A stretch of 64,000 nucleotides of DNA from Mayamaea pseudoterrestris. Taxonomy: Eukaryota. The translations under genes and the position numbers were made by a program. The stretch lies in NCBI GenBank assembly GCA_027923505.1, contig BROI01000018.1, positions 558,001 through 622,000 of the forward strand. The letters run 5' to 3'. Positions 24,183-47,524 of this stretch are shown in pieces; the first letter of the stretch is position 1; each line of letters begins with the position of its first letter. The notes beneath the pieces were generated by a model, which saw only the letters and a program-made list of their open reading frames with translations, did not search any database and had not been told where the DNA came from.

Positions 24183-24267
24183 TGAGTAATTTAAGAATCA
24201 TCGTGTTAATAAATAAATGGAATCACGCGAGCAACTTTCATACTCCACGATAACGATGCAAAAGTGC

Positions 24268-26703
24268 TCATCGAAGCTCTCGAGCAGTGCTGCCGATCAA
24301 CAGCTCCTCGTCATCCAAAGCATCTTCCTCGTCTGGTTCCGGTTCGCGGTTTCTTAGAACAACAATGTCGTTCCGATCTTCTCTCATTGAATTGCTGCTA
24401 AGCCATCCAAGATTAACACCTTGCGGCTCGCGTTCAGCTTCAGCCCTTGTTCGAACCCGGACTATATCTCCTTCAACCACAGATCCTTCAAGAACAAGCT
24501 TCGAAAGCGGGTTAAGTAATTCCGTTGCCAGTGTACGCTTCAAGGGTCTCGCACCGTATCGAACATCGAATCCGCGCTGAGCTAAAACATCCTTGGCATT
24601 AATGCTGACGTCCAGGAACATGTTCTGTCCATCCTCGAGTCGTTGCGCTATTTCTTTCAGCTGTATGTCTGCAATTGCATGCATCGATTCTGGCTGCAAG
24701 CGATTAAAGACGATGCAGTCGTCGATTCGATTAAGCAGTTCCGGACTCAGCGCGTGGCGCACCACATCCATAATGGACTCCACCGCCTCCGCTTCAGAAC
24801 CCAGCATATGTGGAGGAAGACCGGCAATAATCTGACTACCAAGGTTACTTGTCATGACAACGATAACATTTTGAAATGACACCGTCCTTCCATGACTATC
24901 AGTCAAACGTCCCTCGTCAAACAGTTGCAAAAGAATGTTCCATACCTCGGGATGCGCCTTCTCAAATTCATCAAGTAGCAAAACCTGGTATGGCCGACGG
25001 CGGACTGCTTCCGTCAATGTTCCTCCTTCCTCATAACCAATGTAGCCCGGCGGAGCACCGATCAACCGCGAAACATTATGCTTTTCGCCGTACTCGCTCA
25101 TATCAATGCGCGTCATATTCTTCTCATTGTCAAAAATATATTCAGCAAGAGACTTTGCTAATTCGGTCTTTCCAACTCCACTTGGTCCGAGGAATAGGAA
25201 ATTGCCAAGCGTCCGATTACTACTCTGGAGACGTGTGCGGGCGAGGCGAACGCAATTGGAGACAGCAATCAACGCATGCTCCTGCCCCACCACTCTCAAG
25301 CGTAGCTTGTCCTCAATGTGCAGCAACTTCTTGCCTTCGTCACCAGCAATCCGAGACACTGGAATGCCAGTTTGGCGGGCAACAATCGTTGCCACAGCAT
25401 CTGCAGTAACAGCTTCAGCTAACATTTTTGGTTTGTGTCCTTTGCCTCGCTTATCACTGCTAGCCGCGTCGACCTTCTGCTCCACCTCCTCCATCTCATG
25501 CTCTAATCGTGGAATAGTAGAATGCAACAATTCTCCAGCCCGATTAAAATTTCCTTGTCGACGCGCCATCTCCAGCTCCTGACGCGCACGCTCCAATTCC
25601 CCCTTCAACTCCTTTGCCCGATTTAGTTCCTTCTTTTCTTCCTCCCAAGTATCCATGAGATCCTTTATTTTTGACTGCAGTTCTTTTATTTCTTGTTGTA
25701 CCAGTCGTTTACGAGCTGCAATCTTGTCGTCAGCTTTATCCTCGTTTTCTAACGCACTCGCCTCGATCTGCCGCGTTAGCAAGTCTCGCTCCAGCTTCCA
25801 GATAATTTCGGGTTGACTTTCCTGCTCCAGTCGCAAGCGACTACATGCTTCGTCCACAAGGTCAATACTTTTATCAGGCTGCTTGCGATCCGTCAAATAT
25901 CGATCCGAAAGTGTGGCGGCCGCCACGAGCGCTTCATCCTTGATGCGGATTCCATGGTGCAGTTCGTAACGAGTCTTGATGCCCCGAAGAATCGACAACG
26001 TATCTTCAACGGTGGGCTCGGCAACGTAGACGCTTTGAAAGCGTCGCGATAATGCAGCATCCTTTTCAATGATACGATACTCGTCCAACGTAGTTGCACC
26101 AAGTAACTGAAGTTCGCCCCTGGCCATGTATGGTTTGAGAATGTTGCTCATGTCACTAGAACCTTCCGTCTTGCCGGCACCGACAATCATATGAAGTTCG
26201 TCAACAAATAGAATAATTGACCCTTGTGCTGCTTGAACATCCGCCAACAGATAGCGAAGTCGCTCTTCAAACTGTCCTCGCATCATGGCGCCGGACAATA
26301 ACGCCGTCACATTAAGACTTAGCACCTTTTTTGATTTCATGCTTTCCGGTACTTGGCCCTGATGGATCCTTTGAGCCAAGCCTTCCGCAATAGCCGTCTT
26401 TCCGACTCCAGCCGCTCCAATCAGTACTGGACAGTTCTTGGTTCGTCGACTGAGTATTTGGATGCACTGTCGAATCTCCTCGTGGCGGCCGATGATTGGA
26501 TCCATCTTGTCGGAAGCCGCCAGTTCGGTAAGATCAAGCGTGTATTCTCTCAACGTTTCACCAGCAACTGGAGCCGACTGTCCAAAAATGTTCATGCCGC
26601 CGCCGCCTCGAGGAGGTTGGGCGGAAAATAGGCGATTTTGGATACACATCATGGGAGGCGCATGGGCCAAATTCCTTGATTGCTCCAATAACGAGCGAAT
26701 CAT
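24268..26703 (-). CDS. clpB: ClpB/Hsp78 disaggregase lacking the N-domain, probably mitochondrial (ORF open to 26913)
   Basis: DPIIGRHEEI, GAAGVGKT (Walker A1), FVDELH, coiled-coil M-domain, GPSGVGKT (Walker A2), RIDMSEY, LLDEFEKAH and YGARPLKR. The short basic presequence goes directly into NBD1. Confidence 0.92.
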   Translation of the reverse strand: MIRSLLEQSRNLAHAPPMMCIQNRLFSAQPPRGGGGMNIFGQSAPVAGETLREYTLDLTELAASDKMDPIIGRHEEIRQCIQILSRRTKNCPVLIGAAGVGKTAIAEGLAQRIHQGQVPESMKSKKVLSLNVTALLSGAMMRGQFEERLRYLLADVQAAQGSIILFVDELHMIVGAGKTEGSSDMSNILKPYMARGELQLLGATTLDEYRIIEKDAALSRRFQSVYVAEPTVEDTLSILRGIKTRYELHHGIRIKDEALVAAATLSDRYLTDRKQPDKSIDLVDEACSRLRLEQESQPEIIWKLERDLLTRQIEASALENEDKADDKIAARKRLVQQEIKELQSKIKDLMDTWEEEKKELNRAKELKGELERARQELEMARRQGNFNRAGELLHSTIPRLEHEMEEVEQKVDAASSDKRGKGHKPKMLAEAVTADAVATIVARQTGIPVSRIAGDEGKKLLHIEDKLRLRVVGQEHALIAVSNCVRLARTRLQSSNRTLGNFLFLGPSGVGKTELAKSLAEYIFDNEKNMTRIDMSEYGEKHNVSRLIGAPPGYIGYEEGGTLTEAVRRRPYQVLLLDEFEKAHPEVWNILLQLFDEGRLTDSHGRTVSFQNVIVVMTSNLGSQIIAGLPPHMLGSEAEAVESIMDVVRHALSPELLNRIDDCIVFNRLQPESMHAIADIQLKEIAQRLEDGQNMFLDVSINAKDVLAQRGFDVRYGARPLKRTLATELLNPLSKLVLEGSVVEGDIVRVRTRAEAEREPQGVNLGWLSSNSMREDRNDIVVLRNREPEPDEEDALDDEELLIGSTARELR

Positions 26704-27447
26704 TTTAATGGACGAGACGCCACAACTGGGATTTGGTATATGGATAACATTATTGCTCGTGTAACCATTATGTAGAAGTGAATAAAACTGCTGTGGTGTC
26801 GTGCGAACCATGTCAGTGCTTGGCTCATGATTCCGCGGAAATGGCAGTTCCAAAGGAAACGGACGTCGCAGATTACCGAACAAGCGGGAACTGAACATGA
26901 ACTGTCGGATCATTAATACCTTAGATTGGAGATGTTAGTATTTAGTTTGCATACAAGCTGCGATGCTCCTGCACCTGAGATGCTGGAGATGGAAAGCCCA
27001 TGGTTTTGTGACCGAAAGCGTCGAAGGAAATTATTTGAGCCCAGTACCGCTAAGATGAAGATTTACACGTGGTGTAATGTGATTGGCGAAAAATGAGTCA
27101 CAAATGACGAAGTTATAGCCTTTCGCAAGACTGAAAACAATCAAATACCGATACGACTTCGACCATTTCTTCATCGTCCTTCGACCACACCGCATGCGTT
27201 TCGCCACCGCAACATCCATCATAGCTGTACAATTACCTCCACGTCGACAGTGTTGTAATTATACTTTTTGCGAAGTAATTTCATTGCCATCTTGATAATC
27301 AGTGGCTTATATCTCGCTGCGTGTGCGCAGTCATTATCAACGGTCGTCGTCGAGCATTCTATCAATCTGCTTGACAGGTAACAATCGGCTGCAATTCCAG
27401 CTTCTTCATCTATAACATTTCGCGTCGGAAACTACAATCTATTTTCA

Positions 27448-29019
27448 ATGAACACTGCACTACTAATGAGAAAGCAAACATTGCTTCTGGCAGCGGTGTT
27501 GCTACTGATACACGTGGAATTTAGCACGGCTCATCGATTCTCTTGGTCAGCTGCCATTAAACCAATCGTTTCGCAGCATCATTACAGCTCACCAACGAGA
27601 CAAGCGAGTTACAGACAAAGATTAGATTTAGCGACAGCAGATGAAGTAGATAATGCAGTGGCTGAATCAGCCGTACTGCGACATAACAATAAAGAAAAGA
27701 AGAGACAGCTACAACAACCATCTTCGGCATATATTTTCAAGCGAAGGGCAAGAGAACCTGCTGCCACCGCACTTGACGAGAGTTACTCAGACCAATACCA
27801 ATCAGAAGCTCTTGCAGCTATACCTTGTTCACATACTAAGACAATTACGCGATCTCAAACAGCATTTTCTTCATCCTCGCCTGCCGTCGGCAGCAAGCTG
27901 CCTCCGCCAACCCCTCGGCATTCGACATCAACTTCCCAGACACGCAGCTCTCCCTCTCTCACTCCAACTTCTACTCGTGCGCTAAACTTTTGGGAAAATA
28001 TGTTTTGCGGAGCTATCTCTCGGAGTCTTGCGCAGACAATCATGCATCCTGCCAATTCTATGAAAACTATGCTTCAGAACGATTCAACGCGAGGGCAATC
28101 CATGTTGAATTTGCTACAGCCGAAGCACTTACATCGGCTGACTCGAGGCGCAGGAGCCAATTTGCTGCTTTCGGTTCCATCGGGAGCAGTCAACTTTGCA
28201 GTACTAGAAATGGTGCGCAAAAGGCTTGGCCAATTGACGGAGAATGCTAAGGACAGTAGCAAGAATTCCGATCGTAAGCTGTTACAAGGACCATCGCTTG
28301 ACTTTCTTTCGAGCTGCATAAGCACGATTGCTTGCTCGGTGGTATCGACCCCGCAAATGGTTATTACTGACAATATTATGGCGGGCAATTATCCACATTT
28401 GGCAGGAGCTATCCAAGGAATTGGCGGCAACATGGGCATTGCTGGATTCTATCGCGGTTGGTGGCCTGGGCTAGTTGGCAAGATTCCATCTTATGCAATA
28501 ACATGGACTCTCTTTCAGCAGCTAAAGCAACTGCGAACGCACATGTCGCAAAGGCCTGCTAAAGATTGGGAGAATGCCTTCATGGGCTGCATTGCGAGTG
28601 GAACGACAGTGAGCATTCTAATTCCCCTTGACACCATTAAGACCAGACTAGTGACGCAAATGGCCAATGCTCCAAATGCTTACAAGGGAATTTTGGATTG
28701 CGCAGTCCGCGTGGCAAAGGAGGAGGGAGTTGGTGCCTTTTACCGAGGATTGCCGCCCCGACTAGTTAGCGTTGTTCCGATGATTGGCATCCAATTTGGC
28801 TTGTACGAATTTATGAGGAGGACTTTGTTGGATCGAACAGTGTCTGATGCGATCAAGGAGCGTCAGCAGAAGCTATTGGACGATGGATTGTACGAGCGCG
28901 ACGCAGTCTTTGAGGAAACCTTGATGGAAGTGGCTGCCAGTGCAGACGATCCTAATCCAGCTCCTCACTTTATGAAGCGATTCACCAACAAGAATAAGAG
29001 TAAAAGATTACTGAGATAG
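27448..29019 (+). CDS. Mitochondrial carrier family (SLC25) protein with signal peptide and long S/T-rich extension
   Basis: Three carrier repeats (HPANSMKT, TPQMVITD, IPLDTIKT), plus GFYRGW, YKGILDC and EEGVGAFYRGL. Confidence 0.88.
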   Translation: MNTALLMRKQTLLLAAVLLLIHVEFSTAHRFSWSAAIKPIVSQHHYSSPTRQASYRQRLDLATADEVDNAVAESAVLRHNNKEKKRQLQQPSSAYIFKRRAREPAATALDESYSDQYQSEALAAIPCSHTKTITRSQTAFSSSSPAVGSKLPPPTPRHSTSTSQTRSSPSLTPTSTRALNFWENMFCGAISRSLAQTIMHPANSMKTMLQNDSTRGQSMLNLLQPKHLHRLTRGAGANLLLSVPSGAVNFAVLEMVRKRLGQLTENAKDSSKNSDRKLLQGPSLDFLSSCISTIACSVVSTPQMVITDNIMAGNYPHLAGAIQGIGGNMGIAGFYRGWWPGLVGKIPSYAITWTLFQQLKQLRTHMSQRPAKDWENAFMGCIASGTTVSILIPLDTIKTRLVTQMANAPNAYKGILDCAVRVAKEEGVGAFYRGLPPRLVSVVPMIGIQFGLYEFMRRTLLDRTVSDAIKERQQKLLDDGLYERDAVFEETLMEVAASADDPNPAPHFMKRFTNKNKSKRLLR

Positions 29020-29293
29020 CGGAATGTTTTGCTGCTGTGATGCTGTTACAATTTTGGTGTCCTCGCGTCGTCCATTGATTGATGAGGTTGTCTACGGTGT
29101 TTAGACTGCATAGTTTCAAGCTATTACAATCGCATTGATGTGGCTTTAATTACATGTCCTTGTAGCTTTCATTTTGTCCTGAACGCACTCGACCGCTATG
29201 TGATATGTAAATGTAGGCGTGTTGCGAAATCAAGCTAGGAATAGTCGCGTAGGGACTTCCTCTCATCTATAACGCTACAGTATTTTCTATTCT

Positions 29294-29680
29294 TTACTTT
29301 CGAAAAGTCTGCAAGTCGTTCCGTCGAAGCGTTTCCCAGCATGCCTTGATTTTATCAAATTCGTCTTGACAGGACCCTTTTCGCAGCATGGATCCGTCGT
29401 CGTCGGCTGTCTTGTCGTCTTGACTCGATGCATGATGCGCATGGTAATTGACGCAGTCAGCATACGCTTTGATTTCGTCGGGACAAGTAACTTTTAGCTG
29501 TTGAAAGTATTTCGTAAAGCGGTTGGGTTGCTGAATCTTGCCGCTGGTGATGGAACGAATGTAGCCAGATGGTGCTCCCCGATGTTGTATTAATCCATCC
29601 TGATTTACGCGCAGACAGGATCGAGCCTGGTACAATGGTGATGCTGCTGCTGTAGCAGCTGTTATTCGAGGATGAATCAT
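29294..29680 (-). CDS. Twin CX9C (CHCH) protein, NDUFAF8-like
   Basis: CPDEIKAYADC and CQDEFDKIKAC, each with C-X9-C spacing. Confidence 0.65.
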   Translation of the reverse strand: MIHPRITAATAAASPLYQARSCLRVNQDGLIQHRGAPSGYIRSITSGKIQQPNRFTKYFQQLKVTCPDEIKAYADCVNYHAHHASSQDDKTADDDGSMLRKGSCQDEFDKIKACWETLRRNDLQTFRK

Positions 29681-30443
29681 ATGATGGTGCTTGGCGAAAG
29701 GTTTTGATTAGCATTGCATCGTCGGCCAATCGGTACCGGTACGTTCATGGTGGCGAGCGGATCTTGTCAAGCTTCATTGTCCCATTTGTCGCACTGGTTT
29801 CAGTTTGGCTTCACATTCGCGCAGCCATTTCGAAAGGTGGACAATCTGTATTGACCGGAAACGCAGCGTACGGCAATGCAAAAGTAAAGCAATGTTTGAG
29901 TGCCAACTTTAGCTACCGACACTCCCACTTTCGGCACTTCCACATCGTCCGAGCTGTCGCCTCGTGGTCATCGATTGACGCTGCATTAGATGAATCATAC
30001 TACCGCTACTCCCGAACAGTAGTGAATGAACTAACAGTAAGCACGGCCTGACCGGTGATGTAAGGTCTCGAACGTACTCCTATTGATTAAAAGATGGAAA
30101 GTTGTATACCATACATATCATACTCCGCGGGGACGAAACAAATAATGGCCTTGAACTTGATGAGGTACGATAGTCGTGGAATATTCTGGAACACCATTGG
30201 CTTCGCTCGAGTAATTACACTCATTGACCTACAGTAAAAGATCGGACAAACTTTGCCAATGACTCATCGGAGCTCGTGGAGAGGTTCTTTGGTGGTCACA
30301 TGGCATTTTCGGACGCCAGATCGGCCAGTGGTTGATGATTGGAACTCCTCTACTTTCTGCGTTCGGCTGCCCTTCTCGTTCATCGTCCATCAGCAGTCAT
30401 CATCGTATCCGCATCTGCCTCATTTTCGACGGCTAATAACAAC

Positions 30444-31127
30444 ATGTCATCATCCAATGCAATCGATCTTAACTCCAAAGCTTGCGCACTCATGTGCGAA
30501 AGCAACTTTATCGTGGCTGCATCCTTGCTCACAAGAGCATTGCGAGAGATCCAAGGAGCGCAGAAGCACGATCACGACTATGACTGCTCGCCTTGCCATG
30601 ACTACTCCTTGTCGCTCAAGATGAACGATCTTAGTATTCGACCAGTCCGGATCTCCCCCAAGCAACACGATGTTTCTGTCTTTCGCATATACAATTGGGC
30701 ATTGCTGATTACCGACATGGATGTTGTTGTCTGCTCGAGCGATGAGATTCAGCTAGCTGCTCGAATCTGCGCCATTCTCATGTACAATCTTGGCCTGTGT
30801 TTCCAAGCCATAGGCATGATTGAAGGCTCTGACAAGCAAGTGTCCTTTCACAAAGCCATTCGCGCATATGATGCGTCCAGCATGTTGCTTCAATCGAGTG
30901 GATGTGATCAACGATTACTCCGGCTCGCCATTCTTAACAACAAGGGTTGCATCATGGCCTACTGCTACAGTGACTATAGCGCTGCCCAGGAATGTCTTGG
31001 CGCTTTGCAACACTTGCTAAGGACAGTGCACTGTGCCGAGGAAGTCGTGGGTCGAGAGGATTTGATGGAGATTCATTTGAATGTTGTGCTCGTCTATGGA
31101 AGACATGCTCACGCATCGGCGGCTTGA
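30444..31127 (+). CDS. TPR-like helical protein of a type expanded in diatoms
   Basis: DLNSKACALM, ILMYNLGLCF, LAILNNKGCI and C-terminal HASAA pattern. Confidence 0.6.
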   Translation: MSSSNAIDLNSKACALMCESNFIVAASLLTRALREIQGAQKHDHDYDCSPCHDYSLSLKMNDLSIRPVRISPKQHDVSVFRIYNWALLITDMDVVVCSSDEIQLAARICAILMYNLGLCFQAIGMIEGSDKQVSFHKAIRAYDASSMLLQSSGCDQRLLRLAILNNKGCIMAYCYSDYSAAQECLGALQHLLRTVHCAEEVVGREDLMEIHLNVVLVYGRHAHASAA

Positions 31128-31488
31128 CTGGCAGGCGCATGCCTTCAACTTGATACACACTCGACGTTTAATATATCAGCTTCATGTTATGTCTACACAT
31201 ATTTATAAAATGTATGCGTTTTGGTTATGTCTCAGGCCATTTAGCTCGCTTAATCTCGTTTTTACCGGTACATATGTACCGTAGCTGAAAGAAACTGCGT
31301 CGTTTCCAAGAAACCACGTCACACCACGACTCCACCACAGCGGCCGGCGCGTCGTCCACGTCATTCTTCGAAGAAGGTGCAGCTGCTCTCACGACCATGA
31401 ACTCTGATTGCGCGGTTGTGATTACTTTCTGTACGAGAACTCGGTTGAACAAAAGCCAATCAACTGTGAAACTGAAGGCTGCCTTAGC

Positions 31489-33012
31489 ATGTTGTCAGCA
31501 ATAGGTGCCCGCCCTCTTTCGAGGACTTGTGTCGCGCTGCGCTTGACAAGAATCGCTGATTCTGCTGCTCATACCTCCACTCTCGCGATGAGATCCATTC
31601 ACAGCACGTCCAAGTTTCTACGGTCGGCCGAGCCAATCGCTCCAGCTTCCTTCAGTCCTGACAAGATGGAAAAGGACAAGCGATACGCTGCTTCTGCTGC
31701 CGTCCCCGAGTCCTTGCTGCACGATGACGATGAGCTAGCATCCGGAAGCAATCCATTTTCAATTCGCGGCCAGTTCAAGACGGGTCGTGCAGCGTACTTG
31801 GATTTACAGGCAACGACTCCACTTGATCCGCGCGTACTGGATTCCATGTTGCCGTTCATGATCGGATCATATGGCAATCCTCATTCAAGGACGCATCAGT
31901 TTGGTTGGGAGGCTGAAGCCGTCGTGGAGCAAGCGCGCGCGCAAGTCGCTTCACTCATCAACGCCAGCGATCCAAAGGAAATTATATTCACGTCGGGAGC
32001 GACGGAGAGCAACAACCTGGCAATCAAGGGAGCCGCTCATTTTTACAAGAGTCGCGGCAAGCATATTATCACGACGCAAACGGAGCACAAGTGCGTCCTT
32101 GATTCATGCCGCTTTCTGGAAACGCAGGAGGAGTACCAAGTCACATACCTCCCCGTCCAGCAAAGTACCGGCTTGGTGGACATGGATGAATTAAAGGCAG
32201 CGATCCGACCAGGCGAAACCATTCTTGTGAGCATCATGGCGGTCAATAACGAGATTGGAACCCTTCAGCCGCTCGACCAGATTGGCGAGCTTTGTCGGCA
32301 GAACAAGATACTGTTCCACTGCGATGCGGCGCAAATGCTCGGCAAGCTGCCCATTGACCTACTGAAAACAAAGATTGACTTGATGAGCATGAGTAGTCAC
32401 AAGGTTTATGGACCGAAGGGTGTTGGAGCCTTGTACGTTCGCCGTCGTCCTCGCGTTCGTCTCGAACCAATCTTTAGTGGAGGTGGACAGGAGCGAGGCC
32501 TTCGTTCCGGAACATTGCCGCACTTTTTATGCGCCGGCTTTGGCAAGGCGTGTCAAGTTGCTGAGGAGGAAATGGAGTTTGATCACAGGTGGATCTCCTA
32601 CTTGAGTAACAAGCTGCAGAAGGGCATTGAAGAGCGCATTCCTGAAGTTACACGCAACGGAGACGCCGTTCAAAACTACATGGGCTGTTTGAACTATTCC
32701 TTTGCCTATGTGGAAGGGGAGTCGCTGCTCATGTCTCTGAAAAACATTGCCGTTTCCTCTGGATCGGCTTGTACCTCGGCATCGCTTGAGCCTTCTTATG
32801 TTTTGCGCGCGCTCGGACTGGATGACGAGCTCGCGCATTCCAGTCTGCGGTTCGGCATTGGTCGATTTACGACCGAGGAGGAGGTAGATTTTGTGTTGGA
32901 GTTGCTGGAAAAGCACGTTGAAAGACTGCGTGAAATGTCGCCGCTTTGGGAAATGGTGCAGGAAGGAGTCGATTTAAAGTCGATACAGTGGACGGAGGAT
33001 GCGCACCATTAA
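31489..33012 (+). CDS. NFS1: Mitochondrial cysteine desulfurase
   Basis: [39 protein letters not shown] (PLP Lys), [17 protein letters not shown] and C-terminal [10 protein letters not shown]. Confidence 0.97.
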
Positions 33013-33324
33013 TTCCATGCAAGGCTGCATGCGTTACGAATAGATGATTTCGATGCGTCTTTTGAATCCATTGAATGCTACGGGTAGACGAATAGCAGTT
33101 TTATTGCAGCTCTATGGCGGATGATTGTGATAGTGGCGAAGAAAGAGCCGGCCGTATTGCCAGCTACGAAGGATGACGCTTGAATTTAACTCAGTACGAC
33201 TACCGGTAGCAGTATAGACATGAACATTTCGTTATAGTTATTACTGTTGTCATACGAAGTCTTAAGGTACGACGATTGTGCAAGGTCTGTGAACTATTCT
33301 ATGATGGTACGAGACGACTACAGT

Positions 33325-33381
33325 ACTACCGGTACCGGTAGTCGTATATAGGTACGACGTACTTGTACGACGTACAAGTAC
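33325..33381. repeat. Two adjacent palindromes in a GTAC-rich patch
   Basis: ACTACCGGTACCGGTAGT (33325-33342, perfect 18-bp palindrome) and GTACTTGTACG-A-CGTACAAGTAC (33359-33381). Confidence 0.85.
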
Positions 33382-33715
33382 CTGCCTGTTAAGTTAGTAC
33401 CGCTGCGTGTCAAATTTGCTGTTTTCAGACATGCTAAGTTTGTCCACCGTTAACTATCGCTGATGCATCACGTTTTGTCATTCGCGAGTGCATCCACCAG
33501 CTGCATTCCGGTAGCTGCATTCATCGTCGTCACGTATACGACATCGAAACTCCTTTACTCAAAGACGCTGCACCCATCCTCTACCGGTAGTTACCATGCC
33601 TCGCTCATTCAAGGAGGAGGCGGCGGCGGCGGCAGCTTCGGCGCCCCTCAAGGTCTCTCAGCGGCGGCATGCTCGGCAGCGGCCGTCTCAGCCTTTAAAA
33701 TTGAAAGTAGTGACT

Positions 33716-36284
33716 ATGGAACGAAACAATCCTACAGAAGCGTCTTTTGAAGGAACGAATATTAAAGGTAACTATTTAATTGGATGACGCTTGCAGATTT
33801 GCATGCAGGAAGATGCAAAACTAGGTTTACTCACGAGTCTCGCACACGCGTTTTATCTTCTTGTTTTCCTTCACAATCCAAACAGTCGCCGTCCGCATGC
33901 GTCCTTCGATCGAGAACGGCGACAATGGACAGTCCGTTTGGCGAGTTGATAAAGAGAAGAATAATGTCGTACAGTTAATCATTGGCGGAAAGCCATTGGG
34001 AAAGTCGATGCCGCATAAACACACCGTCTACTCTTTCGACAACGTCTTTGACGTCGACGCTACCTCCAAGGAAGTTTACGATGCAATTGCCAAGGATATT
34101 GTTCAAACTGCCCTCGCTGGTGTCAATGGAACAATCGTCATGTACGGTCAGTCCGGCTCTGGGAAAACCTTTACCATGCAAGGTCCTGCATTCAGAACTG
34201 TAGACTGGACCACGGAAGATGGATTCGTTCATTTTGCCGCTGCCGAAATCTTCCAGCACATTCGCGCCACACCTGAGCGCAAATTTACTGTCCGTGCGAG
34301 CGTTTTTGAAATCTATGACGAAGACATTTATGACTTGCTACCAGCGGCTACCGAAACAGTTGAAATTCGCGAGGATCCTCTTCGCGGTGTCGTCGACATT
34401 ATTTCTCAAGATGCAAAACTTTTGGATCTCAATAACTTACAAACTCTTTTAGAAGGGGCAGAGATGAAGCGGTGGGGTTTAGCGGCAGTAAACGGCAACC
34501 GTTTGTCTTCGAGTCATACTATTCTGCGCATCGCCATCGAGAGTCGAGCTTTGGCAGCGGGGTTTGCGGATCGTGCAGCCAATGAAGAGAATGGGGCAAT
34601 CATTGGTGCCTTGACATTTGCTACTTTGGATTTTGTTGCCTTGTCAAATTCCGAGGGCGTTCGTTTGACGGAAATGACTGCAAAGTCTCGCAACGAAGCA
34701 AAAATGTTTGATCAAAGGTATGTTGCTGCGAGGTGCTGGAAGTCATAACATTGTGCGCTTGACTTTACACTATTTTTGGATTTGCATAGCAGTCTAGTCG
34801 CATTTACGCAGGTCATTTCTGCCCTTGGCGATCCGAGCAGTCCGCCTGTCAGCTGTCACAACACCAAGTTGACGCGCATCCTAAAGCCATCCCTAATGGG
34901 AAATGCTCGTCTAGCAATTGTTTGCTGCGCTATCCCATCGTATCGAAATTTGAAGGCAACGCAAGCTACACTATCATTTGCAATGCGAGCGAAGCTCATC
35001 AAGACCTGCGCGCGAGTCAACGTCGAGTATGACGACAAGGCAACCATTCGCCAGTTGCGCATGGAACTTGCAGCTGCGAGTGCCGCGCGAGCCAAAGTCG
35101 AGCATGACGCCAAGGCAACCATTCACCAGTTGAGCATGAAACTTGCAGCCGCTAGTGCCGCGCGAGTCAACGTCGAGTATGACGACAAGGCAACCATTCA
35201 CCAGTTGCGCATGAAACTTGCAGCCGCTAGTGCCGCGCGAGTTGACATTGAGTCTGACGCCAAGGCAACTATTCGCCAGTTGCGCATGGAACTTGCAGCC
35301 GCGAGTGCCGCGCAAGCTGACATCCAGTATGACTCATCCTCCGCATCCTCCGCAATGCAATCTATGATTCAAAAGCCTCTTGTCAAGCAACGAGCCCAGC
35401 GCGGCGGCGTGGTGCGAAACTCTGACGCTGTGATAAAAAAAGCCTTTACTGACTTATATGAGATCAATTTTGGTGCGAGCCTAAAGAAGAGCGACGATGG
35501 ACTAACTGTCGTTTGTTCTTGCCGTCACTTGGAATCACGAAAGCTGCACCTTGTTAAGATATTCGACAATTCTGAACTGTCTGGCGAAAAAGACCGCGCA
35601 AAACTGAAGGATGAAATTTATGTGTTACGTGAATTACATGGTGCACCTCGAATCATTCAACTGGTGGAATCCTTTTGCATGGACAATGCCACGTATATGG
35701 TGATGGAGCCACTGACGGGTGATACTGTTTGGGCTCGTATGAAAAGGCAGTCTATCGCTCGATACTCTGAATATGACGCACGCCGGCTTGCTCTTGCAAT
35801 TTTATCCATCCTCGCATACTGTCACGGTAAAAAGATTGCCATTTGCAATGTCACTGCGGAATCGTTTATATGCATTGCCGACGACGACAACACGGATGTC
35901 GTGCTGGCAGACTTGTCGTGTGCGACACCACATTGTTGGATCGAAGCATTGTCGACCGTCTACAAGCCTTCCGACTACCTTTCTCCGGAAATGCTGTTCG
36001 AGCAACCAGCCTATGACTGGCGTTGTGACAACTGGAGTGTGGGAGTTCTACTACACTACACTTTGACCGGGCACTTCCCATTCCGCTCACTGGGGCAGCA
36101 GTTTATAGACGGCACCATGCTAAATGCTATTCGAAGCGGCCACTTCGCGAATGGACATTTGGAATTTGTGTCGGATGAAGGACAGAAGTTGGTTCAAGGC
36201 CTTTTAAACATTGACCCTGGTAAGCGCTGGACGGCGAACGAGGCGTTGGCGTTCGTGGAAAACTCTTGGCTCCCAACAATTTGA
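33716..36284 (+). CDS. Chimeric kinesin-7 (CENP-E-like) motor + repeated neck + CaMK-type pseudokinase; exons 33716-33767, 33886-34717, 34793(or 34790)-36284 (~791 aa; alternative ATG 33596)
   Basis: Intron GTAACT..AACAG rebuilds NIK^VAVRMRP. Motor motifs YSFDNVF, NGTIVMYGQSGSGKTFTMQG and EIYDEDIYDLL. Intron GTATGT..TAGCAG rebuilds DQ^SLVAF..TKLTRILKPSLMGNA..TLSFAMRAK. The kinase fold follows in the same exon. Confidence 0.8.
35011..35335 (+). repeat. Coding tandem repeat, 75-nt (25-aa) unit x4+ (RVNVEYDDKATIRQLRMELAAASAA)
   Basis: Units start at ~35011, 35086, 35161 and 35236, with a partial unit at 35311. Confidence 0.95.
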
Positions 36285-37040
36285 GGTGCGATTCGTTTTG
36301 GCTGTGGTACTTTGATAAATGTTACTTTGATAAATGTTGATTGCTGGCTAATGTGCTTGGGCTATATGCGCCTTATGTGAGCGACATATCCATAATAATA
36401 TATTACTATAGCATGCATATTACTCACCTATCGTTGTTCCGCTATCTATGGATGACGCAATTCTACGCACTCGCCCGTATGTCATAGTCGAGGCTTTCTG
36501 GAGGGACGCTACTGGAGGAGACGCTATGAGCTACCTGCGTCACAAACATGCTCAGCGCCAGGTGACGGTCCATATTGTAGCGGCGAGGGCGGGAGCTGAT
36601 GTAACAGTTTGGGTAGTTGAGCATGTAGACATGTACCTAGGGACAGGTTGCCGTGTTGGCCACTAATTGAACTTTGAACATCGTGAATATCAAATTCTAT
36701 GACTGCCAAAGCAAATTTCTACCTGATAATCGTTTACTTTAGTTCTAGACAATTGAAGCGTCTCCAGTGGCTCGTTATTACTATCTCATAGAAGTGCACT
36801 AATTTAATAGTCCAAACATGCAAGAGCCAACTTATTGACGTGCATGCGCGGGTTGCCGCTAGTTTCAAGTTCGGCGACGGCCAGAGCTGAAAGCATGTCA
36901 TTCACTTCTCGGTAGCGAGCATGCGTAGGACTTTTTTTTTTAAAACAAGCTCTAACGTGCTATGACCCCTGTCTTCAAAGCCAGGCTCATATTGAATGTC
37001 GATCAACATTCTAGAAACAAGGTATCGCTTGGTGACAAGC

Positions 37041-38461
37041 TCATGCGAGCGCCTTCTCAATCGCTTCATAATACAACGCTGGAAGCGGTTCGTATCGTTG
37101 GGGAAGGGTAGCGCGCAACTCGCGTGTGCGAAGGTGCTTAGCTTTACGATTATCGTCCACTTGCGCACATTCTGTGGCGCAAAGTTCCCATTCAATCAAT
37201 CGGCGCTCATTTTCATCCATCGTGGCGTAATGATCCATTTCCATCTTAAGTTGCTTGGTCTTCGCATCTTTGTCAAAATCTTTGCTGTCATCCTTCAACA
37301 TATGAAGCGTTGCCATGCGACGATCGTCATTAAAGCAGCTTGTTCCAAGGTCGCCACTCCGAGCCGACATCCAAGGGAGCTTGAGCGATGCTGCCGCATC
37401 AGGTCGCGTAAATGGGTTTTTTCCAAGAAGATCAGCGACAAACGCTTTGCCTGTAATTCGCTCTGGAGGCCAGAATTCTGACTCAAACTTGAGCTCGCAT
37501 AATAGTGTACGCAGAAAACCATTTCCATCATACGAGTTGCCAAAAGGTAGCTCTCCGCCGAGCAGCAAACATGCGACACTACCCATACTCCAAACATCGC
37601 ATTTCATGTCATATGTACGGCCAACCATCATTTCCGGGCAGATAAAGCCACCCTTGCCGTGCAAAGTTTGCAGAGTGCCGTCCAGTGGCAACACCTTGGA
37701 TGAACCGAATCGTCCAATCTTAAAGTGCAACGTTTCGTCTCCAGAAGTCACTACTCGCTGATTGAGCAGCATGAAATTTTCCAGCCGCAAATCACGAAGT
37801 ACAATTCGCCTGCAACAGCACAAAATATGTGAGCAAACCATGCGCGTGACGCCTATGTACAATAAACGAGCTTCAATATCGATCCATGGACTTACTTTTT
37901 ATGAATATACGTCAAAGCACGCAAGCCACATCGAATGACATCCCGAGCCTACTTCTCCGAAAAGTTACGATAGTCTAGCAGAAAATCCAGTAGATTTTGG
38001 CCGAGGCGCTCAAATTCAAGGAAGCAGATATTGTTGATGACTGGATACACGCCGAAAAGTTTCACAATATGGTCATTGCCTTTCAGCTGTGAAGGCCCAG
38101 CAGAACGATGAGTAAAATGGAGACGCAAGCCCATTTTGCATGTTATTACTTTAGGTAAAAGGATGGTACTTACCGCTTGAAGATTCGCAACTTCACCTGG
38201 AAGCCACTTGGAGCCAGAGTACACTTTTCGCAAGTCAATTCCTTTGACGGCGCGTTCCGTAGCATTATCCTTACGGACTCCAACGCGCACATTGGTGAAT
38301 GCGCCAAGATCTAAGGACACTGAAGAATGTCCGAATATGAAAGGACATTCCTTTGTCCTTCCTCGTTGGTGTTCGTCTTGTACCAATGTCCGAGGCTCGT
38401 ACAACGACCGACCATCTATGTCGCCCTTTTGCAGCACGCTCTTGCCCTTATTTGGGTGCAT
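37041..38461 (-). pseudogene. Degenerate CaMK-type Ser/Thr kinase gene with an in-frame TAG (37951-37949); exons 38461-38174, 38086-37896, 37809-37041
   Basis: ERAVK..EVANLQA^LKGNDHIVKL..FSEK*ARDVIRCGLRALTYIHK^KRIVLRDLRLENF..KIGRFG..FICPE..CDVWSMG. Introns GTAAGT..ACAG (87 nt) and GTAAGT..TTGCAG (86 nt). Confidence 0.78.
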
Positions 38462-39025
38462 TTTAGAAACAGCTTTATAAATCGGATTCTCTGTTGTAAT
38501 TCTTGAAAAAGTCAAAGGTTCACAAGCGCGTTAGAGTCACGAGTGAACGTGACGGTTGCTGTACAAAACGCGCGCAACGACCGAACTGAACGAACCCGTC
38601 CCTCGACCAGCGCAGAGATTCACATCTAGATTCCAACGAGATGAAAAAACGCATCGCGTTCATACTGGAAGACGCGCGCGAGGAGAAGGCCATCGACCGC
38701 CTCAAGTCGCAGCAATAAGTACACCGCCGCCTGCCGTCATTCGACACTCAGCATTCAGCCCAACAAAAAGTCACTCTTTACTCGGTACTCACCAAACGTT
38801 TCTAATTCATATGCGCGACGCAAGAATGCTCGACTGTGCTATCAAAGTAACGGGTATCTCAAAGAATTGGTACGTAGTAGCTTGAGAGTCGAAGCTGTAT
38901 ATTATAGCGACGCCATGGAAACAGAATTTGCGACGATGGCTGTTGGTGACAGCGGAATTCAAAAGTCGCACCGAGACAAAGTGCAATTCTGCTTGAAGAG
39001 TCGTACCGGTACAGATAATGCCGAA

Positions 39026-40740
39026 ATCAGAACTACGTACTTGTGGTGTTGGCCATACTCACAGTGGAGGCCGTACCCATGGTGTCAGCCTCCAGGCAGT
39101 CCTTTTTGCACCATTCGAGACTCTGCACCTGTCAATGGCATACCCTGGACTTGTTTTGCCTGACTCATTGGGTATTTTGGGTGGCCAGGGCATGGGGTGG
39201 AGACTCTGCACCTGTCAATGACAAGCATACCCTGGACATGTTTTGCCTGACTCATTGGGAATTTGGGTGGCCAGGGCATGGGGCGTTTGACAGGGAAGAA
39301 TCTGCAACTTGTGGTGTTGGCCATACCCACAGTGGAGGCCGTACTCATGCTGTCAGCCTCCAGGCAGTCCTTTTTGCACCATTTGAGACTCTGCACCTGT
39401 CAATGGCATACCCTGGACATGTTTTGCGTGACTCAATTGGTATTTGGGTGGCCAGGGCATGGGACGTTTGACAGGTCAGAATCTACAACTTGTGGTGTTG
39501 GCCATACCCACAGTGGAGGCCGTACCCATGGTGTCAGCCTCCAGGCAGTCCTTTTTGCACCATTTGAGACTCTGTACCTGTCAATGGCATACCCTGGACA
39601 TGTTTTCCCTGACTCATTGGGTATTTGGGTTGTCAGGGCATGGGGCGTTTGACAGGTCAGAATCTACAACTTGTGGTGTTGGCCATACCCACTGTGGAGG
39701 CCGAACCCATGGTGTCAGCCTCCAGGCAGTCCCTTTTGCACCATTTGAGACTCTGCACCTGTCAATGGCATACCCTGGACATGTTTTGCCTGACACATTT
39801 GGTATTTAAGTGGCCATGGCATGGGGCATTTGACAGGTCAGAATCTACAACTCGTGGTGTTGGCCATACTCACAGTGGAGGCTGTACCCATGGTGTCAGC
39901 CTCTAGGCAGTCCTTTTTGCACCATTTGAGACTCTGCACCTGTCAATGGCATACCTCGGACAGGTTTTGCCTGACTCATTTGGTATTTGGGTAGCCAGGG
40001 CATGGGGCGTTTGACAAGTAAGAATCTACAACTTGTGGTGTTGGCCATACCCACAGTGGAGGCCGTACCTATGGTGTCCGCCTCCACGCAGTCCTTTTTG
40101 CACCATTTGAGACTCTGCACCTGTCAATGGCATACCCTGGACATGTTTTGCCTGACTCATTGGGGATTTGGGTAGCCAGGGAATGGGGCGTTTGACACGT
40201 CAGAATCTACAACTTGTGGTGTTGGCCATACCCACAGTGGAGGCCGTACCCATGGTGTCAGCCTCTAGGCAGTCCTTTTTGCACCATTTGAGACTCTGCA
40301 CCTGTCACTGGCATACCCTGGACATATTTTGCATGACTCATTGGGTATTTGGGTGGCCAGAAGCCATAGCCACAGTGGAGGCTGTAACCATGATTTCAGC
40401 CTCTAGGTAGTCTTTTTTGCACCATTTGAGACTGTGCACCTGTCAATGGCATTCCCTGGACATGTTTTGCCTGACTCATTGGGTATTTGGGTGGCCAGGG
40501 CATGGGGCGTTTGACAGGTCAGAATCTATAACTTGTGGTGTTGGTCATACTCACAGTGGAGGCCTCACCCATGGTGTCAGCCTCCAGGTAGTCCTTCTCG
40601 CACCATTTTTGAGACTCAGCACCTGTCCGTGGCATACCCTGGACTGGTTTTGCCTGACTCGTTGGGTATTTGGGGGGCCAGGGCATGGGGCGTTTGACAG
40701 GTCAGAATCTATAACTTGAGGCCATACCCATGGTGTCAGC
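39026..40740. repeat. Non-coding satellite, 181-bp monomer, about 9-10 units (some with internal duplication or deletion)
   Basis: CACAGTGGAGG anchor (one unit CACTGTGGAGG) at ~39060, 39328, 39509, 39690, 39871, 40052, 40233, 40371 and 40552. The modal spacing of 181 is not a multiple of 3. Confidence 0.96.
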
Positions 40741-41392
40741 AGGCCCTGTAGGTGCCCAAATTACACCAGAATAGTGCCAACATCTTTGTTCAGGCTGCGC
40801 TACAAGATGGTAAGCTTGGCTGGTGTCTCAGGTGATGGCAATGTATTTGGTGACAACTTGTCACCATTTTCAACCCGCAGATGCTGTGACATTCAAATGC
40901 CTCTACAGCAAGCCCTGTAGGTGCCCAAAATACACCAGAATGGTGCCAACATCATTATTCAGGCTGCGCTACAAGATGGTAGGCTTGGCTGGTGTCTCAG
41001 GGGATGGCAATGTATTTGGTGACAACTTGTCACCAGTCTCAGCCAGCAGATGCCGTGACATTCAAACGCCCCTACAGCAAGCCCTGTAGGTGCCCAAAAT
41101 ACACCAGAATAGTGCCAACATCATTATTCAGGCAGCGCTACAAGATGGTAGGCTTGGCTGGTGTCTCAGAGAATGGCAATATATTTGGTGACAACTTGTC
41201 ACCAGTCCCAGCCCGCAGATGCCATGACATTCATACGCCCCTACAGCAAGCCCTGTAGGTTTCCAAAATACACCAGAATGGTGCCAACATCATGAATCAG
41301 GCTGCGCTACAAGATGGTAGGTTTGGCTGGTGTCTCAGGGGATGGCAATGTATTTGGTGACAACTTGTCACCAGTCTCAGCCCACAGGTGCC
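40741..41392. repeat. Non-coding satellite, 169-bp monomer, about 3.8 units, abutting the 181-bp array
   Basis: GCCCTGTAGGT at 40743, 40912, 41081 and 41250. Each unit carries the dyad TGGTGACAA-C-TTGTCACCA. Confidence 0.96.
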
Positions 41393-44577: not shown

Positions 44578-46221
44578 TTACTTTATCGTTTCCTTGTCCG
44601 ATGGACCATTCGTCGCCGTCAAGTTGCCGATGATTGCCAAAGTAATGGCAACGACGGTCAAGACTAATAGAACATAGAGTGACATGAGCTCCTTACGCGC
44701 TGTATTGAACCATCCCGAATACACAGCGATTGATCCGTCCTTCTTGTAATCGCGAACAACATGGATTGCCAGCAGAATGGGTAGCAAAAAGGCAACGAGC
44801 GCCGTAAAAACAATTCCACCCCAGCTGAGCAGCTTCGTAACGGCGCCTCCGTCAGTTAAAAACCAAGAAACAAAGTGCGGCAAAAAGACTGCCAGGAGGT
44901 TTGCTTGTTTCGACGAGCAGAGTCCACTTCCGGTGAGGTTAAGTCTAGCCAAGACACTAAACAGCGGACTGCCAAGTCCAATAATCGCAAGCGCAAAGAT
45001 GCTTGACCCAAGCTGCATTGACGTTCCAAACGCACCCGACATCATACTTTCCAGCATGTTCTCCGATACGTTCGGCATGGCGAGGCAACCTAGCAATCCA
45101 ACAGCCACATAGAGAATAGTAGACATGACGCTGCTGACGTGAATAACTTTTGCGACTGGAACATGCGGCTCCCGCTCGTACAACCAGGCTGGAATGGCAA
45201 TTACCAATGCAAAGTTAAACACAACGACGCCAAACAAGTCATCCCAGTTTGTTCCCATCCATGACGTATTACGCAGCGAAAGGTTTGGCGTCAAGGCAAA
45301 CTGAATGACAAACTGCAGACTTGTCGCTAGTAGGACGACAAAGCCAACCACTTGCCACCATGCATTATCCTTCAAATCCATGAGCGCCAATGGTAGAATG
45401 ACGCCGGAAGCGATAAGATTGCCCATGGTAATGAGAATGCCACTTTCGATTGTTTCCTTGAGAAAGGGCAGGCAAAGTCCCTCGTGCATTTGCTCGTCTG
45501 AACATTGCGTATAGTCCCACTGCACCCACTTCAAATCTGCTGCTGTCAATCCATTGATTTGCAAGGCATGCGTCTGCATCCAATGTCCGCAAAAGGTATC
45601 TACGACTTGCGAAACATCGACAATGCTACTAATGTTCAAGCACGTTATACAGCATAGGAACAAGCCTTGTGTTGCGAGAAACCATTTCGGACCCCAAAAA
45701 AATCGAAAGGCTTCGGAATATTCAATCTCCTTAGCGAAAGTGTCATTACCAGGAACTTTGCTGATTGTATTGGCCATGTGAAGGCAGCAAAATGCGGATA
45801 GTAGACAGACAAAAATCAATGTAAAAATGGTTGGTAGAATGCCAGATCGCGAAAAGGTAGCAGGTAAGTTGAGCATAGCTGGACCCGTTAGTGAATTGAC
45901 TGCAATACTAATGCTTCCAAGCGTTCCTATCTTGCCGACATGCCGGTCATAGAGTCGTTGCAAGTGTTGTGACAACTGACGAAACAGTGTTGGGCGAGGA
46001 GATGATGACGCGAATGATATGGTACGAGTAGATTCCAAGGCGCCACCATTCTCATCTCGAAAATGTACGTGATTCGAATAATGGCAATCTCCATTTCCCG
46101 CTTCTTGGTCGTTCAATTTGGATTCTATTGGTAATAGACAACTCGTTTCGGTAGCTGTCGTAGCAATGCCATTGGATAAAGTTGACGAAGGATTGGAATT
46201 GTTAATGAATGACGGAAGCAT
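44578..46221 (-). CDS. Amino-acid/auxin permease (Aa_trans, APC superfamily) transporter
   Basis: About 11 hydrophobic segments. First-helix signature VNSLTGPAMLNLPATFSRSG. Confidence 0.8.
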   Translation of the reverse strand: MLPSFINNSNPSSTLSNGIATTATETSCLLPIESKLNDQEAGNGDCHYSNHVHFRDENGGALESTRTISFASSSPRPTLFRQLSQHLQRLYDRHVGKIGTLGSISIAVNSLTGPAMLNLPATFSRSGILPTIFTLIFVCLLSAFCCLHMANTISKVPGNDTFAKEIEYSEAFRFFWGPKWFLATQGLFLCCITCLNISSIVDVSQVVDTFCGHWMQTHALQINGLTAADLKWVQWDYTQCSDEQMHEGLCLPFLKETIESGILITMGNLIASGVILPLALMDLKDNAWWQVVGFVVLLATSLQFVIQFALTPNLSLRNTSWMGTNWDDLFGVVVFNFALVIAIPAWLYEREPHVPVAKVIHVSSVMSTILYVAVGLLGCLAMPNVSENMLESMMSGAFGTSMQLGSSIFALAIIGLGSPLFSVLARLNLTGSGLCSSKQANLLAVFLPHFVSWFLTDGGAVTKLLSWGGIVFTALVAFLLPILLAIHVVRDYKKDGSIAVYSGWFNTARKELMSLYVLLVLTVVAITLAIIGNLTATNGPSDKETIK

Positions 46222-46827
46222 GATGGAGTAAAAGGGTGCCTGAAGCTACCACGCAGTATCAGTTTTTATATGATCGGCTTGTCTCGTCAACGAGCTTTAA
46301 CCCAGTACAGTATGCATCGCTCACTACTGGCGATGGTTTGGTGTTGGAAATGGAGGGAAATCGACGTGTGCACAAGGAAAAAATGGATGTCGTTGGAACG
46401 AAACGTTGCACATGTCGTAGCGGTACAACACTTAATCGTTTTCAAAAATACTATGGGCATAAACAGTAGTCACAAGAAAATGTCGTTGCAGTTGAAGTCA
46501 GTCGTGCGTCCGTTGTACAGAACCATCGAATCACACTCACACTTCGACCATGGAGGAAGCCAAGCGCTTACCCTGCGTCGCTATAACCATGAATTTACAA
46601 ACAAACGTTTTTCACTCAAATCTGGTAGCACCTCTAACGACGCTGCAGTTGAAACATGTGCAATGGCGATACAGAGGTGCGGAACGCAGACCGGTTAGTC
46701 ACGGAGCTCGCTAGTGGTTTCCGCTCACGACTGCTCCCCGAGAAACGCTCAAACGTTCACACAATTAAAAAAGCGTCCAAGGCACATCGCTCCAGCACTA
46801 CTACTATATCAAATTATTACTGTCACA

Positions 46828-47524
46828 ATGCTATATCAACGACTATTCCATAATGCCGCAACTCCTCTTGCCAAGATCAATCCCTTTGGTGGATCAGCGG
46901 TACGTTCAGTGTTAACAGAATGAAAGGAAGCAAGCGAAAGCAACTACACGATCGTTCACTCACGACATCTTCTCCCATTTACAGACTACAATCCAGCCAT
47001 GGGCTTTGAAGCAGGCCGCGTCGGTCTTTCCGCAACAGACGCAGACGATGCAGCATCAGCCGCATCAGTTGTATGCGCAAGTACCGACACCATGGGCCAA
47101 TTCGCAGCAGTCCATGACACCATGGACGCAGCCGCACACCGTTTGGGCTTTCAAAACGTCCGCGTTGGTGATTCAGCCTACTCCAGTCTCTGAGCAGCAG
47201 CAGCCGCCAAGACAAGTGCCGCAATGGACGCAGGCTCAGCCAGTCTTTCACCGGAACAGCTACTACAGGCAGATCCACTACCGGCCACAGCAGCCAGTCC
47301 GAGTGCCATTTTCTTTCCATGGGGCGCAAATATTGACGTCAACCTTTACGGCGTCATCTGCTACCTTCACATCGCCCTTTGGAGCGCCGCTTTTCGTTCC
47401 ACAGCCGATCCATGTGCAAGCTTCCAACGCATTGGATGTCGTCATGATGGATACCAGCGATGACGACGACGACGTGGAAATGATTGATGCGTGCGATTTA
47501 ATGGATTGGAAAGTCTTGGCGTAG
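46828..47524 (+). CDS. Small Q/P-rich orphan protein; exons 46828-46899 and 46985-47524 (~203 aa)
   Basis: Phase-0 intron GTACGT..CTCAC..TTTACAG (46900-46984) links MLYQRLFHNAATPLAKINPFGGSA to the Q/P-rich ORF. Confidence 0.55.

Follow-up and report, generated by a model that had tools for sequence, protein, structure and literature searches.

A kinesin-7-like head joined to a CaMK-like pseudokinase in one gene of the diatom Mayamaea pseudoterrestris

Background

Can a single diatom gene encode a kinesin motor fold and a protein kinase fold in one polypeptide, and, if so, what would such a protein do when both folds lack motifs that their relatives use for catalysis? This question is raised by a gene located at positions 33596-36284 on the (+) strand of a 64,000-nucleotide stretch of the Mayamaea pseudoterrestris genome (contig BROI01000018.1 of assembly GCA_027923505.1, positions 558,001 to 622,000; hereafter the window, all positions being counted from its first base). 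An initial annotation had read this locus as a kinesin motor fused in one reading frame to a CaMK-like pseudokinase, an architecture that it did not recognize as a described family. Here, we report that the locus is a genuine nuclear gene, transcribed and spliced, which encodes both halves in a single chain, and we trace each half to its probable parental family; a role as a non-motile scaffold is the likeliest of those weighed below.

Both halves were compared with a set of 157 proteins, i.e., the best 150 of 1.84 billion representatives (all scoring at least 161 bits) and 7 other database matches; family names such as "centromeric protein E" are as given by the source records. The motor domain was aligned with 110 relatives from these first 157 proteins, each with a single motor stretch covering nearly the whole domain (partial and multi-stretch matches were excluded).

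Gene structure and transcription

The gene comprises three exons (Table 1), and its predicted product, which has 831 or 832 residues depending on the acceptor used at intron 2, is a 100% match to an existing NCBI entry, the 832-residue hypothetical protein MPSEU_000819100 of M. pseudoterrestris. As this record already lists PF00225, PF00069 and PF16796, the sequence itself is not new. The two canonical introns that the initial annotation had placed between three reading-frame pieces are both skipped, with GT..AG ends, in contigs from public sequencing runs. Its three-exon structure thus stands. As for the start codon, placed by the initial annotation at 33716, the public model (P0001, beginning MPRSFKEE) has instead an ATG in the same frame at 33596, which adds 40 codons; either ATG may be the one used.

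Four public sequencing runs from one study cover the locus (X1 to X4; the kind of run is unrecorded), and their contigs were mapped to positions 33400-36500. One X4 contig skips exactly the 118 nt of intron 1 (depth 3; shorter side 25 letters), and one X2 contig skips 75 nt at intron 2, using the acceptor at 34792 (depth 4; shorter side 28 letters). X1 contigs cover the whole region at approx. 18x and show no joints, as expected of DNA. Moreover, the pieces of the Kinesin profile matched by exon 2 (profile positions 34-253) and exon 3 (259-327) adjoin in the profile, and the join at intron 2 is therefore supported by homology as well. According to the genome paper (PMC9724779), gene models were built from RNA-seq reads; "kinesin" and the "MPSEU" prefix are absent from its main text, and the gene id and "kinesin" are likewise absent from two text supplementary files. 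Overall, these data identify a genuine transcribed, spliced nuclear gene with a single-chain product, the domains of which follow each other in the order disordered N-terminus, kinesin-7 motor fold, four neck copies, a disordered linker of approx. 35 residues and a terminal CaMK-like kinase fold.

The 3' end of intron 2 carries tandem acceptors (NAGNAG) at 34789-34792; of these, the AG at 34789 is the one implied by the public protein, and the AG at 34792 the one in the spliced contig. Use of the acceptor at 34792 removes one Ser as compared to the public model (FDQSSLV becomes FDQSLV). Aligned over alpha4, the 110 relatives show a one-residue gap at this extra Ser in their consensus and their commonest rows, as does P0009, the closest relative of the motor. 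The acceptor at 34792 is thus probably the main one, and the public model probably carries one Ser too many.

Integrity of the junction between the two halves

The junction of motor and kinase lies within exon 3 and requires no splicing. The open reading frame at 34749-36284 is continuous from motor helix alpha4 into the kinase, and Pfam finds both Kinesin and Pkinase in this single exon 3 frame; the placement of the motor C-terminus, neck and kinase in one exon by the initial annotation was therefore correct. Its "neck" proves to be a tandem array of a 75-bp unit in 4.1 copies. The first copy corresponds to the native neck linker with the beginning of the neck coil, and aligns with the neck of P0009. 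Over this region, AlphaFold2 (AF2) predicts two long helices (residues 417-459 and 467-513), followed by a low-confidence linker (residues 515-550).

A tandem array is also where two separate genes could have been joined erroneously, either in the assembly or in the annotation, and the repeat does break assemblies: no single contig of the four runs crosses it. The remaining evidence on the array points the other way. X1 contigs flank the repeat on both sides at approx. 18x, and the X1 unitigs within it chain through the array at 1x to 2x the flanking depth, so that the array has one entry and one exit; neither border shows a branch or a loose end. Contigs from X2 run into the repeat on its motor side and emerge from it towards the kinase. 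Finally, the neck repeat has no match in the 156 other proteins of the set, paralogs included. Given the unbranched chaining in X1, the entry and exit contigs in X2 and the absence of the repeat from these other proteins, a mis-join through the repeat is unlikely; with the continuous single-exon frame also taken into account, we give hardly any credence to an artefactual origin of the fusion.

Degeneration of the motor domain

A profile scan of the type suggested in the initial annotation found both Kinesin and Pkinase above the Pfam gathering scores in this gene; Kinesin scored 145 bits in exon 2 and 49 bits in exon 3 (cut-off 29.3). The best solved relatives of the motor were CENP-E motor domains (E = 8e-26). 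In the AF2 model (mean predicted local distance difference test score, pLDDT, 80.5), motor residues 51-410 mostly scored 80-97, and Foldseek aligned the model to solved kinesin motors (kinesin-1, KIF3B, OSM-3 and CENP-E) with template modelling scores of 0.85-0.90 for most matches listed. The motor fold is thus predicted to be intact.

The Walker A and switch motifs of the head were affected to different degrees, in agreement with the initial annotation, which had described an intact P-loop (GQSGSGKT) and altered switches I (NRLSSSH) and II (ALSNSE). The P-loop pattern was found in 108 of the 110 relatives and is kept here, with the additional change that the Thr of GQT, invariant in all 110 relatives, is replaced by Ser in the fusion protein only (among 111 aligned sequences). 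SSR[SA]H was present in 108 of 110 relatives, as compared to LSSSH (in the stretch NGNRLSSSH) in the fusion protein, and DLAGSE in 109 of 110, with FVALSNSE here instead of the LVDLAGSE of the family. Of 76 columns with ≥ 90% identity across the relatives, 55 are kept by the fusion protein, as compared to 75 by the median relative and 59 by the lowest. Its 21 changed conserved columns cluster in three places, i.e., the nucleotide pocket (T147S, N202D, N261G, S264L, R266S, D309A, A311S and G312N), loop 11/alpha4 and L12/alpha5.

In kinesin-1, according to mutagenesis, microtubule-activated hydrolysis requires the Gly of switch II and a salt bridge that links the Arg of switch I to the Glu of switch II. 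As this Arg, this Gly and the Asp of switch II are all lost in the fusion protein, we infer with confidence from its sequence that the head is not a motor and would be unable to couple ATP hydrolysis to movement. At most, it may bind nucleotide through its intact Walker A loop.

Origin of the motor domain

The closest of the 1.84 billion representatives was P0009 (48% identity; 2026 residues), which is MPSEU_000586500 of the same Mayamaea genome. Orthologs of P0009, 61-70% identical to it, were present in Seminavis, Amphora, Nitzschia, Fistulifera (as "centromeric protein E") and Epithemia, and a third Mayamaea kinesin paralog, P0031, has 1278 residues. These two paralogs reached Pfam Kinesin scores of 336 and 312 bits, as compared to 145 + 49 bits for the fusion protein. 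In a maximum likelihood tree of 25 motor domains (two fragmentary rows, from Thalassiosira exigua and Skeletonema, were dropped), the three Mayamaea proteins grouped together (support 91/95) and the fusion protein was sister to P0009 (90/75), within the diatom part of the stramenopile CENP-E-like (kinesin-7) clade. Its end branch was approx. 20 times longer than that of P0009 (3.68 vs. 0.16), and support for the placement next to P0009 is moderate, given this long branch; long-branch attraction would not be expected, as the long branch joins a short branch from the same species.

BLASTP aligned residues 33-431 of the fusion protein with P0009 at 47% identity. The alignment ends just past the first neck unit, with KTCARVNVEYDDKATIRQLRMELAAA of the fusion protein opposite KTRAQVNVVHDDRSLIRQLRKELAEA of P0009, and over its length P0009 carries canonical switch motifs. 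Beyond residue 431, the repeat, the linker and the kinase fold stand in place of the long CENP-E stalk and tail, as initially annotated; the kinesin-7 placement in the tree and the best matches to CENP-E structures likewise bear out the CENP-E type assigned to the motor. Overall, these comparisons indicate that the motor is a fast-evolving duplicate of the genome's own CENP-E-like kinesin-7, which has lost the long stalk and tail.

This relationship allows for another role, in which the fusion protein would act as a dominant-negative or regulatory partner of P0009, pairing with it through the shared neck coil and thereby braking or tuning the active motor. Alignment to P0009 extends as far as the neck linker and neck coil, which are repeated four times and predicted as long helices. 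A precedent exists in the non-catalytic Vik1 and Cik1, which pair with Kar3; according to the available part of PMC4338441, Kar3 function is made possible by a motor-like partner without catalytic activity. Conversely, the shared helical residues number only approx. 17 per unit, and the long dimerising stalk of kinesin-7 is absent from the fusion protein. A homodimer prediction for residues 400-520 of the fusion protein (two copies) scored 0.04 and has no bearing either way. Taken together, we consider a partnership with P0009 decidedly unlikely.

Pseudokinase domain and its origin

The best solved relatives of the kinase half belong to the CaMK group (the C-terminal kinase of MSK1, CaMKII, CaMKI and CDPKs), and its AF2 model mostly scored pLDDT 80-97. 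The catalytic loop, ICNVTAES, stands opposite HRDLKPEN of solved CaMK-group kinases, and its Lys and Asn are gone along with the catalytic Asp. The Gly-rich loop GxGxxG is gone as well, the aligned stretch being ASLKKSDDGLTVV. The beta3 Lys, the alphaC Glu (LKDEIYVL), the Asp of ADLS, SPE, DNWSVG and the Arg of DPGKR are retained. Alignment to solved kinases and the motif table thus agree with the initial annotation on the beta3 Lys, alphaC Glu, SPE and DNWSVG as retained and on the Gly-loop and HRD (ICN) as lost; its listing of DFG among the losses does not hold as such, since the Asp survives in DLS. Because the catalytic Asp and the Gly-rich loop are lost, the kinase half would not be expected to phosphorylate. 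It may still bind nucleotide, as the beta3 Lys, alphaC Glu and DFG Asp are kept.

CASK, WNK and HER3 were once called "pseudo" kinases and use non-canonical chemistry, and one or both domains of the fusion protein could similarly still be enzymes. The intact Walker A motif of the head and the Lys, Glu and Asp kept in the kinase half would fit such activity. Against it, three residues found in 108-110 of the 110 relatives are lost here (Asp and Gly of switch II, Arg of switch I), and the kinase half lacks the catalytic Asp, the Lys and Asn of the catalytic loop and the whole Gly-rich loop; non-canonical catalysis therefore appears improbable.

At positions 35909-35910, one low-depth X3 contig reads GA for AG, which would turn the DLS Asp into Asn. 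Elsewhere, X3 has three deletions of 1 nt, and the change is absent from X1 (depth approx. 19), which stems from the same sample; a read error is probable.

In the representative search, the nearest kinase domains were all located in proteins carrying between two and five such domains. Of the five domains with the best scores, four, i.e., those of P0129, P0011 (third domain), P0034 (second) and P0035 (second), were each the last in their protein. All four read IA[I/N]RN (IAICN in the fusion protein), with Asn at the position of the catalytic Asp, and all four keep DFG. In a tree of 42 kinase domains, from which none was dropped, a clade of seven (support 100/98) united the kinase half with the last domains of P0129, P0011, P0034, P0035, P0010 and P0016. 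The end branch of the kinase half was 1.54, as compared to 0.2-0.45 for the other members. A more distant tandem-kinase relative, P0002, is from the diatom Fragilaria crotonensis, and a word-index search with the kinase region found only distant bacterial kinases.

These results indicate that the kinase half derives from the terminal pseudokinase domain of tandem CaMK-like kinases. As its relatives in the clade already have Asn at the catalytic Asp, the domain was a pseudokinase by the time of the fusion; the changes at the Arg of HRD and at the Phe and Gly of DFG followed later. The separate phylogenies that the initial annotation had proposed for finding the parent genes thus lead to a P0009-type kinesin-7 for one half and to terminal tandem CaMK-like pseudokinases for the other.

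Another kinase-like gene lies tail-to-tail with the fusion gene, 757 bp downstream (37041-38530, (-) strand). It has LRD for HRD and RFG for DFG, its C-lobe reading frame scores 64 bits with Pfam Pkinase, and its best matches are P0011, P0129 and P0035. It was considered as a close donor of the kinase half and rejected (26% identity, C-lobe only), even though it belongs to the same broad family.

Rarity of the architecture

The combination of Kinesin and Pkinase was found in none of the 156 other proteins (phmmer with both halves), a search in which a distant fusion scoring below approx. 160 bits in total would be missed. PF00069 was present in none of the 120 kinesin-7 relatives listed, and the 28 pattern matches among Joint Genome Institute (JGI) metagenome contigs did not include a relative. 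In the literature searched, neither a described family nor a natural kinesin-kinase fusion was found; "kinesin" does not occur in the Stentor and Phytophthora kinome papers, and the available part of a 2006 survey covering the kinesins of photosynthetic eukaryotes is silent on kinase domains. Such results agree with the view that the architecture lies outside described families, and within the reach of these data, the fusion is confined to the Mayamaea lineage. By language-model features, the nearest cluster was myosin III (Pkinase + Myosin_head; score 0.90).

Selection on the open frame

Random substitutions, without insertions or deletions, were introduced into the coding sequence until the motor reached a set identity, with 300 runs per target. 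At the observed 48% identity, none of the 300 runs was free of stop codons (mean 21 stops); the same was true at 70% and 80% identity (0/300 for both), and 5 of 300 runs remained stop-free at 90%. The frame is thus much too open for neutral decay. That it has stayed open across approx. 50% protein divergence, with working splice sites and a confidently predicted fold, argues that the product has been under selection, while the long branches indicate a constraint very different from that on the parent genes.

An alternative is that a duplicated kinesin head joined a pseudokinase exon to give a young, weakly transcribed chimera that serves no function and is drifting to loss. The simulation speaks against this, as do the open frame of 831 codons, both introns with working splice sites, the 55 of 76 conserved motor columns still present, the retained Lys, Glu, SPE, DxWSxG and DPxxR Arg of the kinase, and the confident AF2 folds of both domains. 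What favours such a chimera is that it is known from a single species, that its branches are extreme in both trees, that both halves have lost catalytic motifs, that differences among the neck repeats are mostly non-synonymous and that its Kinesin score is low as compared to the paralogs. On balance, we regard a functionless chimera as possible and yet doubtful.

Proposed function

If neither half is an enzyme, as we infer, the protein would work by binding, and a non-motile scaffold or non-enzymatic adaptor is its likeliest role; we put this reading at about even. The initial annotation had proposed a non-motile, microtubule-binding scaffold or a dominant-negative decoy. The kinesin-like head would attach to microtubules or tubulin, either statically or under the control of nucleotide. 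The pseudokinase would be a module for docking or allosteric control, with active kinases of the parental tandem family as its most plausible partners.

Several observations weigh against a scaffold. The gene was found in one species only and both halves are on very long branches, which also fits relaxed constraint in a young chimera; in the neck repeats, inter-copy differences are mostly non-synonymous. Splice support is thin, with one shallow contig per intron, and X2 also has an unspliced contig over intron 2. No single contig reaches from motor to kinase. The docking of partners is argued from analogy only. Furthermore, family-invariant residues of elements in contact with the microtubule are altered in loop 11 (R325S), alpha4 (I332F and N333D) and L12/alpha5 (R358H, D359N and S360T), and because of these changes microtubule binding by the head cannot be assumed; the Arg of "RDSK" in kinesin contacts tubulin.

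A more specific form of the scaffold would be a double pseudoenzyme, in which a nucleotide-gated, non-motile head parks the pseudokinase on spindle or cortical microtubules, and the pseudokinase recruits or allosterically switches active tandem CaMK-like kinases. We consider this detailed mechanism rather unlikely. If true, it would represent a recent one-chain counterpart of CENP-E/BubR1 or Costal2/Fused in one diatom lineage.

Features of the gene and its surroundings

The features of the fusion gene are listed in Table 1.

Table 1. Positions of exons, introns, domains and motifs of the fusion gene in the window.
Feature	Positions	Strand	Evidence and remarks
Exon 1	33596..33767	+	Disordered N-terminus and first motor residues (…NIK|V); AF2 pLDDT <50 over residues 1-47
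Intron 1	33768..33885	+	118 nt, GT..AG, phase 1; join restores IKVAVRMRP
Exon 2	33886..34717	+	Kinesin motor, beta1 to loop 11
Walker A / P-loop GQSGSGKT	34146..34169	+	GxxxxGKT kept; relatives GQT.SGKT
Degenerate switch I NRLSSSH	34497..34517	+	Relatives NERSSRSH; first Ser to Leu, Arg to Ser
Degenerate switch II ALSNSE	34638..34655	+	Family DLAGSE; Asp to Ala, Ala to Ser, Gly to Asn
Intron 2	34718..34792	+	75 nt, GT..AG, phase 2; alternative acceptor 34789 (72 nt) implied by public protein
Exon 3	34793..36284	+	Motor alpha4-alpha6, neck repeats, linker, pseudokinase; TGA at 36282-36284
Tandem array, 75-bp (25-residue) in-frame unit, 4.1 copies	35009..35313	+	Tandem Repeats Finder, 89% matches
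CaMK-like pseudokinase domain	35508..36251	+	Pfam Pkinase 112 bits, profile 14-259 of 263; cut-off 31.7
beta3 Lys (LHLVKIF), kept	35556..35558	+	Alignment to solved kinases, motif table
ICN for HRD	35841..35849	+	Catalytic Asp to Asn; following LKPEN to VTAES
DLS for DFG	35910..35918	+	Metal-binding Asp kept; Phe and Gly changed

Elsewhere in the window, the palindrome CTACCGGTAG occurs at 33200-33209, 33581-33590 and 59493-59502 (3 copies vs. 0 expected; 100 shuffles). Two of the copies are located upstream of the fusion gene, one of them ending 6 nt before the ATG at 33596, and inverted repeats rich in ACCGGTA and related to CTACCGGTAG fill positions 33190-33390; the palindrome may be a promoter element. 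Intergenic tandem repeats are present at 39117-41392 (181 bp x 6.4, 183 bp x 1.9 and 169 bp x 3.9; 87-92% matches). Positions 21693-33012 and 44578-49473 contain ordinary nuclear genes, e.g., for a DEAD-box helicase, a ClpB-like AAA protein and a mitochondrial carrier; an amino-acid transporter, an Obg GTPase and, as the next gene upstream of the fusion gene, an NFS1/IscS-like class-V aminotransferase are also among the neighbours.

Comparison with known systems

Scaffolding roles are known both for dead motors and for dead kinases. The gene described here would place both in a single chain, with traceable parent families and one parent in the same genome. If functional, it would be a clean natural case of a new adaptor built from two enzymes, and it would open a way into the tandem CaMK-like kinases, which have hardly been studied and include at least one diatom protein. 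If it is a drifting chimera, it shows how much divergence is possible in a young fusion gene that is still open and spliced.

Each half resembles its parent family in some respects and departs from it in others. With CENP-E/kinesin-7 proteins, represented by P0009, the fusion protein shares a homologous motor (residues 33-431) and a conserved neck linker and neck-coil start; unlike them, it has degenerate switches I and II, a fourfold neck and a pseudokinase, and lacks approx. 1600 residues of stalk and tail. With the terminal pseudokinases of tandem CaMK-like kinases it shares a clade, Asn at the catalytic Asp, a degenerate Gly-rich loop and the retained Lys and Glu. Those domains, however, follow one to four other kinase domains (with HRD kept where fully aligned) and keep DFG, whereas the kinase half of the fusion protein is preceded by a kinesin head only, and has Cys for Arg and DLS for DFG.

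Among kinesins, KIF26A/B, Costal2/KIF7 and trypanosome KIN-B are non-catalytic kinesin-like proteins, and Costal2 scaffolds the kinase Fused. To our knowledge, none of these, nor Vik1/Cik1, has a kinase fold in the same polypeptide, and they belong to other kinesin families. All of these, Vik1/Cik1 with Kar3 included, use the kinesin fold as a binding module without motor chemistry; PMC4338441 and PMC5590807 (available parts) concern members of this group. The likeness of the fusion protein to such non-catalytic kinesin-like proteins would be one of principle, not of descent.

Covalent linkage of a cytoskeletal motor head to a kinase fold has a parallel in myosin III/NINAC, where motor and kinase are both active. 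In contrast to the protein described here, myosin III has an actin motor and an N-terminal kinase; the two fusions are not homologous, and the parallel is an analogy only. Pairing of a kinesin-7 with a kinase or pseudokinase is also found in CENP-E, which binds hBUBR1 according to the available part of PMC2132809, and in NACK1/NPK1, where NACK1 activates a MAP kinase (PMC1434745, available part). In those systems, unlike in the M. pseudoterrestris gene, an active motor pairs with a kinase that is a protein of its own and comes from another kinase group.

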